DNA from: an uncultured Bacilli bacterium
GTDB taxonomy: Bacteria; Bacillota_I; Bacilli_A; RF39; UBA660
Direction of reading: 5' to 3'
NCBI GenBank assembly: GCA_947628545.1
Contig: CANRAJ010000001.1
Location: forward strand, 1-38,114
DNA length: 38,114 nucleotides
A program made the translations under genes and the position numbers. The notes beneath the pieces were generated by a model. That model worked only from the letters and a program-made list of their open reading frames with translations. It made no database searches and was not told the DNA's origin. Position 1 is the stretch's first letter. Every line of letters starts with the position of its first letter. Of the stretch, positions 8,817 through 14,960 are shown in pieces.

Positions 8817-9026
8817 TTATTTATAACGATTCATTTGCGCCATAACTTGTTTGACTTGTTTTTGACTTGGTTTTCGTCCCATGCTACTCATCATCGCTTC
8901 AATCATTTTTTCATTGATTGGCGGATTCTTATCCATTTGTTTTTTGAATAGCATCCGGGCTAAGAAAAAACCAATAATGATGCCAATGATAAGGCCGACA
9001 ACTAAATATAAAATTAATTTTCCCAT
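8817..9026 (-). CDS. yneF: UPF0154 family membrane protein YneF
   Basis: 69 aa. An N-terminal TM helix is followed by NPPINEKMIEAMMSSMGRKPSQKQVKQVM, the typical YneF/UPF0154 sequence. Positioned next to the sirA-like gene and tkt, as in B. subtilis. Confidence 0.75.
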   Translation of the reverse strand: MGKLILYLVVGLIIGIIIGFFLARMLFKKQMDKNPPINEKMIEAMMSSMGRKPSQKQVKQVMAQMNRYK

Positions 9027-9077: not shown

Positions 9078-9500
9078 TTAATTATAGACAAGTTTCGATA
9101 ACCAAAAATAATCACGATTAGCAAAATCACAAACAAATAAATCATTCGTCGGTAAAAATAAATTAATATTTTGGGGTAAGACATTAGTCGTCAATAAAAT
9201 ATGGGTATTTTTCACATAAATATTGGTTTCTTCCCCGCGATATTTATTATAAATACGGTGATTATTCCCTACTTTTAAATAAAAATCATTGTCTTTATTC
9301 TTTTCGTAAATCATTTTATTATAGGCTTTCGTATCAATAATCTTGGTTAGTTGTTCCAGCATCTCTTTTCCGATACTTACACTTTCCCGATCGAGTAAAT
9401 AAATACTTTCCAAAGTTTTAAATAAGGTATAAGGATGTTCTAAAAGTAAAATTTGTAATTCCCGATTAATTTTAAAAATATAAAAAGTTCTCACTAGCAT
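9078..9500 (-). CDS. SirA (YneE)-like protein, putative sporulation inhibitor of replication
   Basis: About 140 aa, lying between tkt and yneF exactly where B. subtilis sirA sits. The C-terminal LFVCDFANRDYFWL resembles B. subtilis SirA ...FLAMDFNSKRYGWL as recalled. The start codon is uncertain (TTG 9521, ATG 9500 or GTG 9494). Confidence 0.45.
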   Translation of the reverse strand: MLVRTFYIFKINRELQILLLEHPYTLFKTLESIYLLDRESVSIGKEMLEQLTKIIDTKAYNKMIYEKNKDNDFYLKVGNNHRIYNKYRGEETNIYVKNTHILLTTNVLPQNINLFLPTNDLFVCDFANRDYFWLSKLVYN

Positions 9501-9540
9501 CACCCATTTGTATGATACCAATAAGAACTTAAATAATTTG

Positions 9541-11544
9541 TCAAATTATGTCGCTATTATCTTTTTCTTCGTAAAAACTAATAATTTTTTCTAAAATATC
9601 ATTTTTCGTAAATTTCAAATATTTAGCCAATTCTTCTTTTTTAGCACTTTGCCCAAATTTATTAATGCCAAAGATATATTCCGGTTTAGTTGCAAAGCGA
9701 TTCCACATTAGAGAAGATCCCGCTTCAAGGCAAAAGACCGGCACATGTTTGGGTAATAGTTGTTCTTCGTAACGCGGATTTTGTTTTAAGAATAGTTCCA
9801 TGCTTGGCATGGAAACGACCCGCATATCGTGACCAACCACATAAAGATCTTGGGCAATTTGTAAGGCCAGTTCAACCTCACTACCCGTGGCGATAATGAC
9901 GCCATCCAAGCGATATTTTTCTTTTCGGACCATGTAAGCCCCATATTTAACAAACTTGGCATTAGTATATTTATATTTCGGTTTAGGTTCTTTACTGATA
10001 ACTAAAGCACTCGGACCATTATTTTTTAAAATGAATTCCCAAGCCCCCATGATTTCATTAATATCCGCGGGCCGGAAGGTCGTAAAGTTTGGAATTGTCC
10101 GGAGCATTGAAAGTTGTTCGACGGGTTCGTGAGTAGGCCCATCTTGACCAACGAAAAAGGCATCATGCGTAAAAATGTAAGTTACCGGTAAATTCATTAG
10201 AGCACTTAAGCGCATCGCCGGTTTTAAATAATCACTAAAGCTTAAAAAGGTTGAACCAAAAACTTTTAGATTAGATAACGCCATCCCATTTAAAATTGCT
10301 CCCATGGCATGTTCTCTTACCCCAAAGAAAATATTTTTGCCCACCGGGTTTTGTTCCGAACAAACACTGGATTTTGTTAACAAAGTTTTACAAGATGAGG
10401 ATAAATCCGCGGAACCCCCTAAAAAGAACGGACTTTTAGGCGAAATAAAGTTCATTACCTTTTGATTACTTAACCGTAATTCTTCATAATAATCGTCACT
10501 AATTTTATACTTGGTATCATCAAAATCAATAAATAATTCATTTTTTTCTAATAAATTAATGATACTATGTAAACCAGCATTTTGTTCTTCTAAAACTTTA
10601 TTATATTCTTCTTGCCATAACCGATATTTTTTATTTACTCTTTCTAAAATAGCATCTTGGAAAGTTTTTAAAACCTCACTTTCAATTTCAAAGGGCTTAG
10701 TCATAATTCCTAGTTTATTTTTTAAAGCCACTAAATCATCCTTGGCTAAAACTTTACCATGGACCTCATTAGTGTTTTCCAAAGCACTCCCGGCCCCAAT
10801 AATCGTATCAACAATAATTAATGATGGTCTTTTGCTTCTTTTGGCATCGGCAATCGCATCACTTATATCGTTATAATTGCTGCCATTTTTAACATGAATA
10901 ATATTAAAGTTTAGGGCTTCAAACCGTAGTTCAATATCTTCAGTGAAAGTGCGATCAGTTCGACTATCTAAAGTCACTTGGTTATTATCGTAAAGTAAAA
11001 TTAATTTATTTAAATTTTGGGTACTAGCAAAAGATAAGGCTTCGTAACTAATCCCTTCCATTAAATCACCATCGCCACATAAACAGTAAGTATAGTAATC
11101 TATTAAAGAACTGTTTTTCCTCTCCATATTGACAATAGAACGAAGATAGCGTTCGGCTAAAGCCATGCCGACGGCCATCGCAACACCTTGTCCTAAAGGA
11201 CCGGTTGAAACATCAACGCCTGGTGTTACTTTATATTCGGGATGTCCTGGCGTTAAAGAATTAAGTTGGCGAAAGTTTTTGATTTCTTCCATTTCAATTT
11301 CAAAGCCCGCATGATAAAGAAGCGAATAAAGTAACGCCGAACCATGACCAGCTGACATCACAAAGCGGTCCCGATTAAACCAATTGGGTTTGCTGGGTAA
11401 AACATTTAAATGATCTTTATATAAAGCATAAAGAATGGGTGCAGCCCCTAAAACAATGCCGGGATGACCACTACCCGCTTTATCGATCATATCGAGGGCT
11501 AAAACTTTAATACTACTAATTGCTTTTATATCTTGTTTTTTCAT
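9541..11544 (-). CDS. tkt: Transketolase
   Basis: 667 aa with GSGHPG and the TPP-binding motif CGDGDLMEGISYEA. Full-length three-domain architecture. Confidence 0.9.
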   Translation of the reverse strand: MKKQDIKAISSIKVLALDMIDKAGSGHPGIVLGAAPILYALYKDHLNVLPSKPNWFNRDRFVMSAGHGSALLYSLLYHAGFEIEMEEIKNFRQLNSLTPGHPEYKVTPGVDVSTGPLGQGVAMAVGMALAERYLRSIVNMERKNSSLIDYYTYCLCGDGDLMEGISYEALSFASTQNLNKLILLYDNNQVTLDSRTDRTFTEDIELRFEALNFNIIHVKNGSNYNDISDAIADAKRSKRPSLIIVDTIIGAGSALENTNEVHGKVLAKDDLVALKNKLGIMTKPFEIESEVLKTFQDAILERVNKKYRLWQEEYNKVLEEQNAGLHSIINLLEKNELFIDFDDTKYKISDDYYEELRLSNQKVMNFISPKSPFFLGGSADLSSSCKTLLTKSSVCSEQNPVGKNIFFGVREHAMGAILNGMALSNLKVFGSTFLSFSDYLKPAMRLSALMNLPVTYIFTHDAFFVGQDGPTHEPVEQLSMLRTIPNFTTFRPADINEIMGAWEFILKNNGPSALVISKEPKPKYKYTNAKFVKYGAYMVRKEKYRLDGVIIATGSEVELALQIAQDLYVVGHDMRVVSMPSMELFLKQNPRYEEQLLPKHVPVFCLEAGSSLMWNRFATKPEYIFGINKFGQSAKKEELAKYLKFTKNDILEKIISFYEEKDNSDII

Positions 11545-12728
11545 TCTTTTCTTTCCTTTCTTTTTTCTACTGCTTGGGCATAAACTTTTAGAACATCAGA
11601 AGCAAAAACCTCTTTGGAATAACGATAGACACTATTTTGGGCATTTTGTTCTAAACTTTGATAAGTTTTTTTATCATTTACTAACTTTAAAATAATCTCG
11701 CTATAGGCATTTTCATCAGTAAATAAATAACCATTATATTTATCTTGAACAACATCGGTAAAACTTTTATCGTTAATAACTATCGCTGGTAAGCCACTGG
11801 CTAGGGCTTCAATAATTGTAAGCCCTTGCGTTTCGGTAACCGAAAAAGAAGTAAAGACATTAAATAAATGATAATACAAATGAATTTTTTGATACTCAAT
11901 TATGCCCGTAAAAATAACTTTTTTTTCAATTTCTAAATCTTTGGCAAGTTGTTTTAATTCTTTTAAATATGGTCCATCACCCACGATCATTAATTTAATA
12001 TGGGGATTATATTGGGCAATTTTTTGCATACTTTTAAGTAACCGGTCTAAACTTTTTTCTTGCGCAATCCTAGAAATTGAACCAATAACAAAATCATCAC
12101 TAGTTAAATGGTATTTTGCTTTTAGTTTGGCAATTTCTTTTTTAATTGCCGGAGTCAATTTAAATTTCGTAGTATCAATACCAGTCGGAATAACATGAAT
12201 CTGTTTTTTAATTTGATATTTTTCTTTAAATAATCTTTCAATTTTTGCCGTTGGCACAATTAATTCATCACATTTTTTCTCACAAAAATACTTCGTAATT
12301 TTAATTGCCAATTTCCGCGCCGCTTTATCAAAATAACCATGCGTGACATAATAAACATAATCCTCATACATCGTATGATATGTATGCACTACGGGAATAT
12401 CTAGCTTTTTGGCTACAATCCGAGAAAACATGCCAATCCCAAACTCTGTTTGACTATGGATGACATCTAAATGCCAGGATTTAATAATCTTCATCGCTTT
12501 TTGGGAATAAACACTGGTTAATTTTGTACCACAAATTCCCGTATTAATCCCAGGCATATAAATAATTTTATTTTTTTCATCATAAATAAATTTTTTATTT
12601 TTTAAATTTGCCGTCACAATATAAACATCTTGATTCATGGCGCGTAAAGTATCTACTAAAACTTTGATACTTGTGACAACCCCTGAAATATAGGGTTCAT
12701 AAAGTTCTGTAAAAATTCCTATTCTCAT
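11541..12728 (-). CDS. Glycosyltransferase family 4 (likely diacylglycerol glycosyltransferase for glycolipid synthesis)
   Basis: 395 aa. N-terminus MRIGIFTELYEPYISGVV and C-terminal E..G....EA.A.G.P motif (ETQGLTIIEALASGLPAI) are typical of GT4. The stop overlaps the tkt start (ATGA). Confidence 0.7.
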   Translation of the reverse strand: MRIGIFTELYEPYISGVVTSIKVLVDTLRAMNQDVYIVTANLKNKKFIYDEKNKIIYMPGINTGICGTKLTSVYSQKAMKIIKSWHLDVIHSQTEFGIGMFSRIVAKKLDIPVVHTYHTMYEDYVYYVTHGYFDKAARKLAIKITKYFCEKKCDELIVPTAKIERLFKEKYQIKKQIHVIPTGIDTTKFKLTPAIKKEIAKLKAKYHLTSDDFVIGSISRIAQEKSLDRLLKSMQKIAQYNPHIKLMIVGDGPYLKELKQLAKDLEIEKKVIFTGIIEYQKIHLYYHLFNVFTSFSVTETQGLTIIEALASGLPAIVINDKSFTDVVQDKYNGYLFTDENAYSEIILKLVNDKKTYQSLEQNAQNSVYRYSKEVFASDVLKVYAQAVEKRKERKE

Positions 12729-12808: not shown

Positions 12809-12955
12809 TTATTTGGTAACTTGAGCTAAATAAGTCTCTTGGTTTTCAGCTTCTTGAGTTAAATATTCTAAACGACAACTTACAGCCCAAACCATTATGA
12901 CTATGGTGGCGTAAAAGAATATTATCCCTCCATACTTTTTCAAAACTTTTTTCAT
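12809..12955 (-). CDS. 48-aa single-TM peptide divergent from lexA, candidate SOS-induced cell-division inhibitor analogue (YneA/SosA position)
   Basis: MKKVLKKYGGIIFFYATIVIMVWAVSCRLEYLTQEAENQETYLAQVTK. An AGAGGTGG RBS lies 6 nt upstream of the ATG at 12955. The ORF-track start at 13006 lies inside this gene's own -35 box and is rejected. Confidence 0.55.
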   Translation of the reverse strand: MKKVLKKYGGIIFFYATIVIMVWAVSCRLEYLTQEAENQETYLAQVTK

Positions 12956-12977
12956 TTCTACCACCTCTTTCATTTCC

Positions 12978-13006
12978 ATCATATTACAATCATTTGTTCG
13001 TGTCAA
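12978..13006 (-). promoter_or_regulatory. Promoter of the 48-aa peptide gene with embedded LexA (Cheo) box
   Basis: Minus strand: TTGACA (13001-13006), 17 nt, TATGAT (12978-12983). The spacer begins with CGAACAAATGATTG (12987-13000), an 11/14 match to the Firmicute LexA box CGAACATATGTTCG. Confidence 0.55.
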
Positions 13007-13014
13007 TTAATTTT

Positions 13015-13054
13015 AAAACATTTGTTTGACTTTTGACACTCTTTAATGTAAAAT
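13015..13054 (+). promoter_or_regulatory. lexA promoter with overlapping degenerate LexA box
   Basis: TTGACT (13026-13031), 17 nt, TAAAAT (13049-13054). AAAACATTTGTTTG (13015-13028; palindromic core AAAC-ATTT-GTTT) overlaps the -35 and shares CATTTGTT with the other box. Confidence 0.5.
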
Positions 13055-13070
13055 GAAACTAGGAGGAAAA

Positions 13071-13694
13071 ATGGAAAATAAAAATTTAACTAAAAGACAA
13101 GTCGAAATTTTAACTTTTATTAAAAAATATATTGCCGAACATGGTTACCCACCTGCAATCCGGGAAATCTGTCAAGGAGTTGGCTTAAGCAGTCCAGCGA
13201 CAGTATTTGTTCATATTAAAAACTTACAAAAAGAAGGTTTAATTAAATCCACTAATAATAAGTTCCGAACGCTTGAGGTAGTCGGCGAAAACGAATATAT
13301 GCCCGCGAAAGAAGATATTGTGAAAGTTCCCCTACTGGGTAAAATAACTGCTGGCAATCCAATTACGGCAATTGAACAACCCAATGAATTTTTTGATCTT
13401 CCGGCGATGTTTGTACCTAAAAAAGCCGAAGTCTTTACTTTACATGTATCCGGAGATTCGATGATAAATAAAGGCATTTATGATGGCGACTATGTTATTG
13501 TCAAACGCCAAAATCAAGCGAAAAATGGTGATGTCGTTGTAGCGATGACCCCAGAAAATGAGGTAACACTTAAAACTTTTTATAAAGAAAAAGATCATAT
13601 TCGCTTACAACCCGAAAATGATACTATGGATCCTTTTATTTTCCCTGAAGTTACAATTTTAGGAATTGCCATCGGTTTATATCGGCAATTATAA
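13071..13694 (+). CDS. lexA: LexA repressor (SOS regulator, S24 peptidase)
   Basis: N-terminal wHTH (LTKRQVEILTFIKKYIAEHGYPPAIREI) and the autocleavage Ser/Lys motifs VSGDSM and VTLKTF. The AGGAGG RBS favours the ATG at 13071 over the ORF-track ATG at 13053. Confidence 0.9.
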   Translation: MENKNLTKRQVEILTFIKKYIAEHGYPPAIREICQGVGLSSPATVFVHIKNLQKEGLIKSTNNKFRTLEVVGENEYMPAKEDIVKVPLLGKITAGNPITAIEQPNEFFDLPAMFVPKKAEVFTLHVSGDSMINKGIYDGDYVIVKRQNQAKNGDVVVAMTPENEVTLKTFYKEKDHIRLQPENDTMDPFIFPEVTILGIAIGLYRQL

Positions 13695-13700
13695 TTAATC

Positions 13701-13743
13701 AAAAAAGAATAAGTTAAATAATTTCAAAACTTATTCTTTTTTT
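13701..13743. terminator. Bidirectional terminator between convergent lexA and the 409-aa gene
   Basis: 15-bp stem AAAAAAGAATAAGTT / AACTTATTCTTTTTT with an 11-nt loop. A/T runs flank both sides. Confidence 0.65.
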
Positions 13744-14960
13744 AATGTCCGACTAGTATCGTGACAATTGCGAAATAATTTTTTATTTTTTTCAATATAA
13801 TTCATAATCATTTTTACTTTTTCACTTTTTACATTGCAATGTTTTACCATCTTAAAATAATTATCTCCTAAATGATTCAATTTTTCGCGATAAGAATAGT
13901 ATGCTAAACAAGCAATAACAATAGCCTTTTCTTCTTCATTAAACTGATTAACCATTAAAACCATATCTAAGCCATATTTTTGTACATCATCAATTATTTC
14001 TTCAATATTTTTTATCCCACATATAGAAAAAACATAATCGGTTGTAAAATCTTGTTGTTTTAAATCTAAACTAATATCATGATTACCCACAACTAATTCT
14101 AAAGCATAAGTGTTTAATTTAATTAACATTGGCTTTAATAAGGTACTTTGGCACATTTCTAGGCCTTTGGCAAAATCATTATTATTAATGGCTTCATAAA
14201 CATTATGTGATTCTCTATCTTTCAATAAAGGTAATTCTAAAGTATTTTCCACTTGAATTATCGTTTTGGCTAATTGGTAAACACATTGTAACTCTTTCGT
14301 TTTTTTAACTTTAGTTGTTTCCAATAAATTAATAACCTGATCATATTCTTCTAAAACAATTAAATTACGAAGGGTTTGTTTTAATTCCAACATTTCTGTA
14401 ACTTGACTAAGCAATTGATAGGCCAAAATATTTTCGATATTATCATTTTCCTTTAATGCATTATAACCTAAATAAGCAACGGCGAATTGTTTTTTAAAGG
14501 CCATTAGCCGGTAAAAATTTTGTTTGCCAATTTGGGGATTAATTAAATCATCATCCGTAATGGTTTGGACATTATTTAAAATAAATTGTGGGGCATCCAT
14601 TAATTCATTCAATAAAAATAAATAGAAATTATACTCTCCTTGCATATTTGGACAATTAGTTTTCATTTTAATTAAAAATCTTAAAGCCTTGGGATAATTT
14701 TGACTTTGGATAAATTCATTTATTAAATACAAGTAACCTAATTTATTTTGAGGTTCACTTTTAATACTTAATAAATATAAATTCATGGCCTGATATTTTA
14801 AACCACTATTTAAATAGGAATTGGCGATAGCAATTAAATCATCGGCCTTAACAAAAACCGTATCATAACCGTTCCACCAAATTTTTTCAGATGAAATTAA
14901 TTGTTTTAAATCTTTGGGTTGTAAATATTTTTTTAATTCTGTTAAACTTATTTTCTTCAT
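13731..14960 (-). CDS. Hypothetical all-helical (TPR-like) protein
   Basis: 409-aa ORF with a GGTGGGGGA RBS. Repetitive helical-hairpin-like composition (..YLNSGLKYQAMNLYLLSIK.., ..NYPKALRFLIKM..). No catalytic motif recognised. Confidence 0.55.
   Translation of the reverse strand: MKKISLTELKKYLQPKDLKQLISSEKIWWNGYDTVFVKADDLIAIANSYLNSGLKYQAMNLYLLSIKSEPQNKLGYLYLINEFIQSQNYPKALRFLIKMKTNCPNMQGEYNFYLFLLNELMDAPQFILNNVQTITDDDLINPQIGKQNFYRLMAFKKQFAVAYLGYNALKENDNIENILAYQLLSQVTEMLELKQTLRNLIVLEEYDQVINLLETTKVKKTKELQCVYQLAKTIIQVENTLELPLLKDRESHNVYEAINNNDFAKGLEMCQSTLLKPMLIKLNTYALELVVGNHDISLDLKQQDFTTDYVFSICGIKNIEEIIDDVQKYGLDMVLMVNQFNEEEKAIVIACLAYYSYREKLNHLGDNYFKMVKHCNVKSEKVKMIMNYIEKNKKLFRNCHDTSRTLKKE

Follow-up and report, generated by a model that had tools for sequence, protein, structure and literature searches.

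Does the small gene that faces lexA in an uncultured gut bacterium encode a cell division inhibitor of the SOS response? To our knowledge, the small membrane proteins that stop division during this response are known from a handful of cultured species and share almost no sequence. We considered this question for a 38,114-nucleotide stretch of DNA, hereafter the window, from an uncultured Bacilli bacterium of the RF39 lineage (GenBank assembly GCA_947628545.1, contig CANRAJ010000001.1, positions 1 to 38,114), in which lexA is divergent from an open reading frame (ORF) for a single-pass membrane peptide of 48 residues. As judged by sequence comparison, this ORF is a genuine, conserved gene. We lean towards reading it as a LexA-repressed gene for an SOS-induced division inhibitor, a reading that follows from its position, its predicted regulation and the architecture of its product.

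The peptide gene and the lexA promoter region

The divergent module comprises the following features, all in window coordinates:

12809-12955, minus strand: ORF of the 48-residue single-pass membrane peptide, stop codon included (ORF call and translation)
12961-12967, minus strand: Shine-Dalgarno sequence (SD) of the peptide gene, GAGGTGG, 5 nucleotides before the ATG (read from the sequence)
12978-13006, minus strand: promoter of the peptide gene, with -35 TTGACA at 13006-13001, a 17-nucleotide spacer and -10 TATGAT at 12983-12978
12987-13000, minus strand: predicted LexA operator of the peptide gene, CGAACAAATGATTG, directly after the -35 hexamer in the -35-proximal part of the spacer
13015-13028, plus strand: predicted LexA operator of lexA, AAAACATTTGTTTG, overlapping the lexA -35 hexamer
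13026-13054, plus strand: promoter of lexA, with -35 TTGACT at 13026-13031, a 17-nucleotide spacer and -10 TAAAAT at 13049-13054
13071-13694, plus strand: lexA, 207 residues (Pfam LexA_DNA_bind 7.7e-21, Peptidase_S24 1.8e-32)

Coordinates, Pfam matches and translations agree with the initial annotation, which had placed lexA opposite a 48-residue ORF with a single transmembrane (TM) helix. The Ala-Gly cleavage site (in KITAGNP) can be recognised in the LexA translation, as can the serine of GDSM and the lysine of VKR. The translated peptide, MKKVLKKYGGIIFFYATIVIMVWAVSCRLEYLTQEAENQETYLAQVTK (48 residues), consists of a basic N-terminus (MKKVLKKY), a hydrophobic helix at approximately residues 9-27 and a polar to acidic tail of about 21 residues. 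AlphaFold2, supplied with a 57-sequence alignment, models the peptide as one continuous helix over residues 2-47, whose predicted local distance difference test score (pLDDT) averages 79.7, with about 95 in the membrane part and a drop to 57 at the end. A Pfam search of the peptide returned no family and no LysM domain, for which 48 residues leave no room. The peptide is thus LysM-less and far smaller than the division inhibitors YneA and SosA, as had been pointed out before in the case of YneA.

The promoter of the peptide gene, described earlier as strong, is indeed the top sigma-70-type match between positions 12600 and 13800 (11/12); the lexA promoter matches at 10/12 positions and is conserved among relatives. 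An SD equivalent to GAGGTGG is also found at the peptide gene of relatives, and the 5' leader is about 20 nucleotides long, with no significant fold (z -1.56). A 65-residue reading of the ORF from a TTG start was rejected as an artefact, as this start falls within the -35 hexamer.

At the start of the promoter spacer, the box CGAACAAATGATTG matches the Firmicute LexA box CGAACATATGTTCG at 11 of 14 positions, exactly as the annotation had it. It retains an intact CGAAC half; the promoter-distal half has decayed to GATT. The decamer CATTTGTT(C/T)G, reported before as shared by the two boxes, is common to both, and the box centres lie 28 nucleotides apart.

Predicted LexA operators in the genome and the clade

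No perfect CGAAC-N4-GTTCG turned up when the genome was scanned for it; the variant AAAC-N4-GTTT was therefore considered, and LexA control was not rejected. The operator of the genus reads [C/A/T][G/A]AACAAAT[G/A]TTTG, a consensus derived independently from the recA, lexA, Y-family polymerase, Bro-N/DinD-like and ORF6N genes. Near-identical sites ([C/A]AAACAAATGTTTG) in this genome sit in the promoters of classical SOS-type genes, namely lexA, a Y-family polymerase gene (Pfam IMS) in which the box lies between TTGAAA and TATAAT, two Bro-N/DinD-like genes and an ORF6N gene. A literature search on LexA in RF39 found nothing relevant.

The recA gene (C92:1873) carries CGAACAAATATTTG about 10 nucleotides upstream of its -35 hexamer, and the 20-mer that spans this operator, ACACGAACAAATATTTGTAA, is identical at 18 of 20 positions to the corresponding 20-mer of the peptide gene, ACACGAACAAATGATTGTAA. 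Among 24 recA loci of the genus, 21 have CGAACAA[A/G][T/C]ATTTG or [A/T]AAACAA[A/T]TGTTTG at the same position (CGAACAAATATTTG or [A/T]AAACAAATGTTTG), and the remaining three have near variants of the operator there. Since both occur at orthologous recA sites, the GAAC and AAAC forms behave as interchangeable versions of one operator. Against the genus consensus taken from recA in the 24 genomes, the peptide box matches at 13 of 14 positions.

A matrix of seven other sites of this genome, with the peptide box held out, was used to rank 1,100,779 positions, among which the peptide box came 10th. Eight of the top ten positions are intergenic, and the peptide box is the sole intergenic one that did not belong to the training set. 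Control of the peptide gene by LexA is thus a well supported prediction; the wider view that both promoters carry LexA-type operators, and that the locus is a divergent SOS module, is likewise supported on sequence grounds.

The initial annotation had described a second box that overlaps the lexA -35 and is more degenerate than the first. The overlap stands, but the ranking of the two boxes does not: AAAC-N4-GTTT forms also occur at recA, at the Y-family polymerase gene and at the Bro-N/DinD-like genes, so that the lexA box represents the clade consensus; of the two, it is the peptide box that is weaker in this genome. The lexA box reads [T/A/G]AAAC-N4-GTTTGAC in all loci of the genus and takes the form GAAC/AAAC-N4-GTTTGAC family-wide, its right half being constrained in the sister genera by the overlap with the -35 hexamer.

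Several other sites in the genome resemble this operator. The Y-family polymerase gene (Pfam IMS), with a predicted LexA box in its promoter spacer, lies at C3:700-5376 beside a large serine recombinase; the same region holds a fragment of a penicillin-binding-protein transpeptidase and is probably a mobile element inserted into a penicillin-binding-protein gene. At C56:7611-7700, directly 3' of a SEDS (FtsW/RodA) gene, a promoter TTGACA-17-TATAGT with CGAACATACATTTG in its spacer drives an ORF6N-domain gene, which is likely to be a further member of the small predicted LexA regulon. Two paralogous pairs of Bro-N/DinD-like genes (C26:8816 and C71:3549) each stand behind a CAAAC-N4-GTTTGAC box. 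Two identical 16-mers, ATAAAACAAATGTTTG (C4:337-350 and C4:484-497), rank with the best LexA-type boxes in the genome. Between them lies an apparent small signal recognition particle RNA gene, with tadA-dnaX following shortly downstream; the ribosome-binding site of tadA is overlapped by the second copy, and the pair could be either real operators or a duplicated flank. A further candidate, AAACCCTTGTTC at C29:3059, considered as a box before the S41 protease gene, was dismissed as chance, since it falls within the start of the coding sequence and is a poor operator match.

Conservation of the peptide gene and its chromosomal slot

Relatives keep a short TM ORF at this position, a point that the initial annotation had left to be checked, in about 38 species of the genus and in 26 of 29 other genera. 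Within the genus, a complete homologous ORF of 44-52 residues is divergent from lexA at 25 of 30 lexA loci; at three more, a contig end cuts the ORF and its start is visible, and at the last two, which belong to sister species, the peptide gene is absent beside lexA. A search of these two species found no peptide gene elsewhere in the genome either, one of the genomes being 94% complete. The figure of about 38 distinct species, all with the peptide gene and both boxes, includes named metagenome-assembled genomes (MAGs) in addition to the genus loci, and in all of them the CGAAC/CAAAC+AAAT half of the peptide box is invariant. The peptide consensus of the genus is M..VLKKYSGVLFFYLVIVGMILLINxRFSxLN....YA(I/L)(S/N)(E/D), and the family-consensus peptide is MLEVMKKYSGVLFFYLAIVGMILLINLRFSKMESTSGSDTVIAMSE.

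The pattern of substitution bears on whether the ORF is translated at all. In an alignment of 24 codons, sequence pairs differ on average at 5.9 first, 3.0 second and 10.2 third positions, and approximately half of the differing codons are synonymous; with third positions the most variable, the ORF behaves as a coding sequence. Reading frame, SD and length are preserved over about 65 genomes. The ORF might instead be non-coding or regulatory, for example a leader for the glycosyltransferase and tkt genes that follow it, with the boxes serving lexA only. Consistent with a leader, a terminator scan 3' of the ORF found none passing the criteria and the fold at its 3' end is not significant (z -0.72), so that some read-through into the GT4 glycosyltransferase gene is possible. 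The strong third-position bias and the preserved frame, SD and length speak against this explanation, as does the persistence of the ORF while the genes downstream of it differ between genera; moreover, the peptide box lies inside the spacer of the peptide gene's own promoter, 28 nucleotides from the lexA box, which does not fit a role for lexA only. We therefore hold a non-coding ORF to be very improbable.

Conservation extends beyond the genus. Sampling covered 60 other genera of the family, one genome apiece, and the lexA loci read were the 29 best. In the 26 genera mentioned above, lexA faces an ORF of 33-53 residues with one hydrophobic helix; of the three other loci, one is truncated at the end of its contig and two show different genes beside lexA. 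Nearly all peptide promoters of the sister genera consist of TTGACA followed at once by the box, an arrangement that is conserved family-wide at the peptide promoter. Mismatches to CGAAC-N4-GTTCG, scored by script in 24 genera, number zero in five genera, one in ten and two to three in eight, and in one genus the box is shifted by 2 nucleotides. Perfect Cheo boxes thus occupy the position of the peptide box in five sister genera.

The peptides of the family diverge strongly in sequence and keep a common plan. A basic N-terminus (mean charge +1.8) leads into a helix of about 20 residues, with the hydrophobic 17-mer within approximately residues 9-27; the helix is usually followed directly by an Arg and then by a polar, slightly acidic linker. 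At the C-terminal end, a short hydrophobic patch precedes two to three polar residues (IIVMNCK, LVYNK, IAVNK, YAIND).

A profile search of 5.8 billion proteins returned 114 clusters, none of them informatively named, and HMMER, run exhaustively against 1.84 billion representatives, reported 115 matches at E <= 1e-3. Nearly all of these matches are 43-55 residues long; the longer ones are mis-called starts through the promoter ('..LTRTN..') or read-throughs, and none of the 115 has extra domains. Searching viral contigs with the genus profile found no relatives. The organisms concerned are filed as 'uncultured Bacilli bacterium' (MAGs from rabbit, human and other guts), 'Candidatus Onthocola' (placed in Bacilli incertae sedis by NCBI), 'Firmicutes bacterium CAG:460' and 'uncultured Tenericutes UMGS'. 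Other genomes have the peptide too, its family being spread over the whole bacterial family; on these searches it is a new, unnamed sequence family of what appears to be a known kind of SOS effector. One member of the genus (G016) has two lexA-peptide modules, on its contigs C71 and C68, whose LexA proteins are 78% and 63% identical to that of the window; the second module may be a genuine duplicate, or the bin may be mixed.

The window forms contig C1 of a 1.10-Mb genome of 31% G+C, assembled in 104 contigs and 90% complete. Around the module, it carries the following genes:

8817-9026, minus strand: yneF/UPF0154 (UPF0154 4.1e-29)
9078-9521, minus strand: SirA-like ORF (SirA 1.2e-3, a weak match below the cut-off)
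9541-11544, minus strand: tkt (Transketolase_N 1.7e-112)
11541-12728, minus strand: GT4 glycosyltransferase gene (Glycos_transf_1 1e-35), between the peptide gene and tkt
13731-14960, minus strand: ORF of 409 residues, convergent with lexA, without a Pfam match

On the peptide side, parE lies further along, past yneF. We take the gene order of Bacillus subtilis to be lexA <> yneA-yneB-ynzC-tkt-sirA-yneF, where <> marks divergence. The order in the window, lexA <> peptide-(GT4)-tkt-sirA-like-yneF, resembles it and would place the peptide gene in the yneA slot. This assignment is well supported by gene order and bears out the earlier proposal that the peptide occupies the position of yneA and sosA. 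In several sister genera, tkt lies directly 3' of the peptide gene. Other families of the class have lexA <> tkt or lexA <> ynzC (DUF896, 4.2e-29)-tkt. At one locus from another family of the class (L064; G049:C43:17100-19800), the lexA <> tkt slot holds an unrelated 57-residue single-helix ORF preceded by CAAACAAATGTTCG; it seems that this slot is filled anew by small membrane genes that are not homologous to one another.

A putative division inhibitor and its alternatives

The organism has the machinery on which a division inhibitor could act. Its genome encodes four SEDS genes (C56:6523-7611, C3:32654-33646, C95:815-1897 and C39:2405-3457), LysM proteins and one S41 protease (C29:1891-3075), which indicates that it makes a cell wall and a divisome.

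In an undamaged cell, LexA would sit on the operator right after the -35 hexamer of the peptide gene and block RNA polymerase, and a second LexA dimer on the lexA -35 would make lexA autoregulated. Upon DNA damage, RecA-stimulated self-cleavage of LexA, for which the Ala-Gly site and the Ser/Lys dyad are present, would free both promoters, and the short, unstructured leader of about 20 nucleotides together with the strong SD would allow immediate synthesis of the peptide. The peptide is predicted to insert N-in/C-out, with its basic N-terminus inside and its long helix across the membrane; the helix would continue outside through the conserved juxtamembrane Arg (consensus N-x-R-F) and end in a polar tail, about 20 residues long, that carries a short hydrophobic patch at its C-terminus. 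The helix may then bind a septal peptidoglycan synthase, most likely an FtsW-type SEDS protein, like YneA, SosA and SidA, perhaps acting without a LysM domain in the manner proposed for the extended helix of SosA, and septation would be delayed until repair is finished. Finally, an extracytoplasmic protease would clear the peptide. The candidate is the single S41/CtpA-like enzyme of the genome; given this enzyme, and a C-terminal patch that is conserved among the peptides, clearance of this kind is plausible.

Comparison with named systems is consistent with parts of this model. The peptide gene is like yneA of Bacillus subtilis and Listeria in its slot (divergent from lexA and upstream of tkt-sirA-yneF) and in the LexA box of its promoter, and the product is like YneA in its single, predicted N-in TM helix; it differs in that it has no LysM domain, reaches less than half of the approximately 105 residues of YneA and is not followed by yneB/ynzC. 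The TM helix of YneA localises the protein by binding TM7 of FtsW, and AlphaFold 3 models suggest the same binding for SosA, ChiZ and SidA, with SidA on the opposite face of TM7 (PMC13396833). CtpA, an S41 protease that reads C-termini through its PDZ domain, digests YneA (PMC6051672). Two of 20 members of the peptide family match NCBIfam NF010723, the model named 'cell division suppressor protein YneA', in its N-terminal TM part (positions 2-39 of the 87 in the profile, E 0.013-0.02), the best at 15.4 bits against a cut-off of 60 and thus below the family threshold; other members match SecE or LspA at similar levels, and we treat the NF010723 matches as probably reflecting hydrophobic composition. 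Across 250 genomes of the class, NF010723 returned only generic LysM repeats in large proteins and no YneA orthologues.

SosA of Staphylococcus aureus offers the closer parallel in architecture. It is a LysM-less, SOS-induced division inhibitor of 77 residues, in which residues 10-30 form the TM helix, the juxtamembrane stretch is conserved and turnover is governed by the C-terminal end (PMC6851548). The peptide resembles SosA in being divergent from lexA, under LexA control (predicted for the peptide) and without LysM, and in having a single TM helix near the N-terminus and the C-terminus outside the cell (again a prediction for the peptide); an extended helix is predicted for both. Its membrane-proximal segment is conserved and its extreme C-terminus less so, and the organism here also encodes an S41 (CtpA-type) protease. 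At 44-52 residues, the peptides reach about 60% of the length of SosA, which was compared by description only. The exhaustive profile search found no 77-residue protein with a TM helix at residues 10-30; the profile relatives are of 43-55 residues only and come from uncultured gut Bacilli.

SidA of Caulobacter crescentus, a LexA-induced protein of 29 residues that binds FtsW, resembles the peptide as a minimal one-helix SOS membrane peptide without an extracellular domain, and illustrates that a bare helix can block late division. It differs in coming from a Gram-negative alphaproteobacterium, in not being encoded beside lexA and in its unrelated sequence.

Small SOS-induced membrane peptides need not act on the divisome. 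TisB and DinQ of Escherichia coli are small, hydrophobic, LexA-repressed type I toxins induced by the SOS response, and the mRNAs of such toxins have long, processed leaders. The peptide described here, with its one hydrophobic helix and predicted LexA control, could belong to this kind and depolarise the membrane, lowering the proton motive force and promoting dormancy. A weak antisense promoter-like site within the gene (ATGACT-17-TATTAT, 9/12, plus strand, 12897-12925) points in the same direction, but is of chance quality (12 sites, against 5.5 +/- 2.3 in shuffles). Moreover, TisB and DinQ have antisense RNA antitoxins and long structured leaders, and neither was found at the peptide locus: no conserved antisense RNA gene or flank was detected, the downstream DNA varies between genera, and the leader is only about 20 nucleotides long, with no significant structure. 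A polar tail of about 20 residues whose end is conserved recalls SosA more than it does pore-forming toxins, the gene keeps a fixed chromosomal slot by lexA and tkt and is neither mobile nor duplicated, and the search of viral contigs found no relatives. A depolarising toxin is, in our judgement, distinctly unlikely.

A LexA-induced peptide could also have another role in the envelope and no direct effect on division: it might, for example, modulate a transporter, a membrane protease or the remodelling of the wall during repair, or serve as anchor or regulator of another SOS protein. Its regulation and its location in the membrane are supported here, and the link to the divisome is one of analogy; fast sequence evolution and loss of the gene in two species would also fit such a role. 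Against it, the characterised lexA-divergent small membrane proteins of Gram-positive bacteria, namely YneA, SosA, ChiZ and DivS, are all division inhibitors (PMC6851548), and no conserved partner gene accompanies the peptide gene, as the genes downstream vary. We consider an envelope role of this sort unlikely.

The reading as an SOS-induced division inhibitor, which we continue to favour, has several points weighing against it. No significant sequence similarity of the peptide family to YneA or to any named family was found. The TM helix of YneA alone localises without inhibiting division, for which the LysM domain is required (PMC13396833), so that a LysM-less 48-mer would need a different inhibitory step. 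Loss of the gene in two species of the genus indicates that it is dispensable, and the damaged distal half-site of its operator in this genome means that repression may be leaky. The window's peptide is also the most divergent of the genus, with S-C-R-L at the juxtamembrane position where the genus has N-x-R-F, and the operator of its gene has the most degraded distal half in the genus; the divergent motif and the degraded operator together hint at relaxed constraint in the window's lineage.

How an inhibitor without a LysM domain might work is a narrower question. It is conceivable, if doubtful, that a bare helix of about 45 residues docks on FtsW (TM7) and stalls septal wall synthesis via its extended juxtamembrane helix, and that these peptides are the smallest SOS checkpoint effectors of Gram-positive bacteria, conserved across a family of reduced-genome gut Bacilli. 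If this were true, they would constitute a minimal natural peptide inhibitor of SEDS polymerases, and the LysM step of YneA would be dispensable. Should the peptides act on FtsW, they would be the shortest Gram-positive examples and a natural start for asking which part of an inhibitor suffices.

For the clade itself, the locus adds a family of about 115 clusters that has gone unannotated, its members often being overlooked by gene callers or given a wrong start; it spans a whole family of uncultured, small-genome gut Bacilli. The clade also gains its predicted LexA operator and a first small regulon, comprising lexA, recA, the peptide gene, the Y-family polymerase gene and the Bro-N/ORF6N genes.

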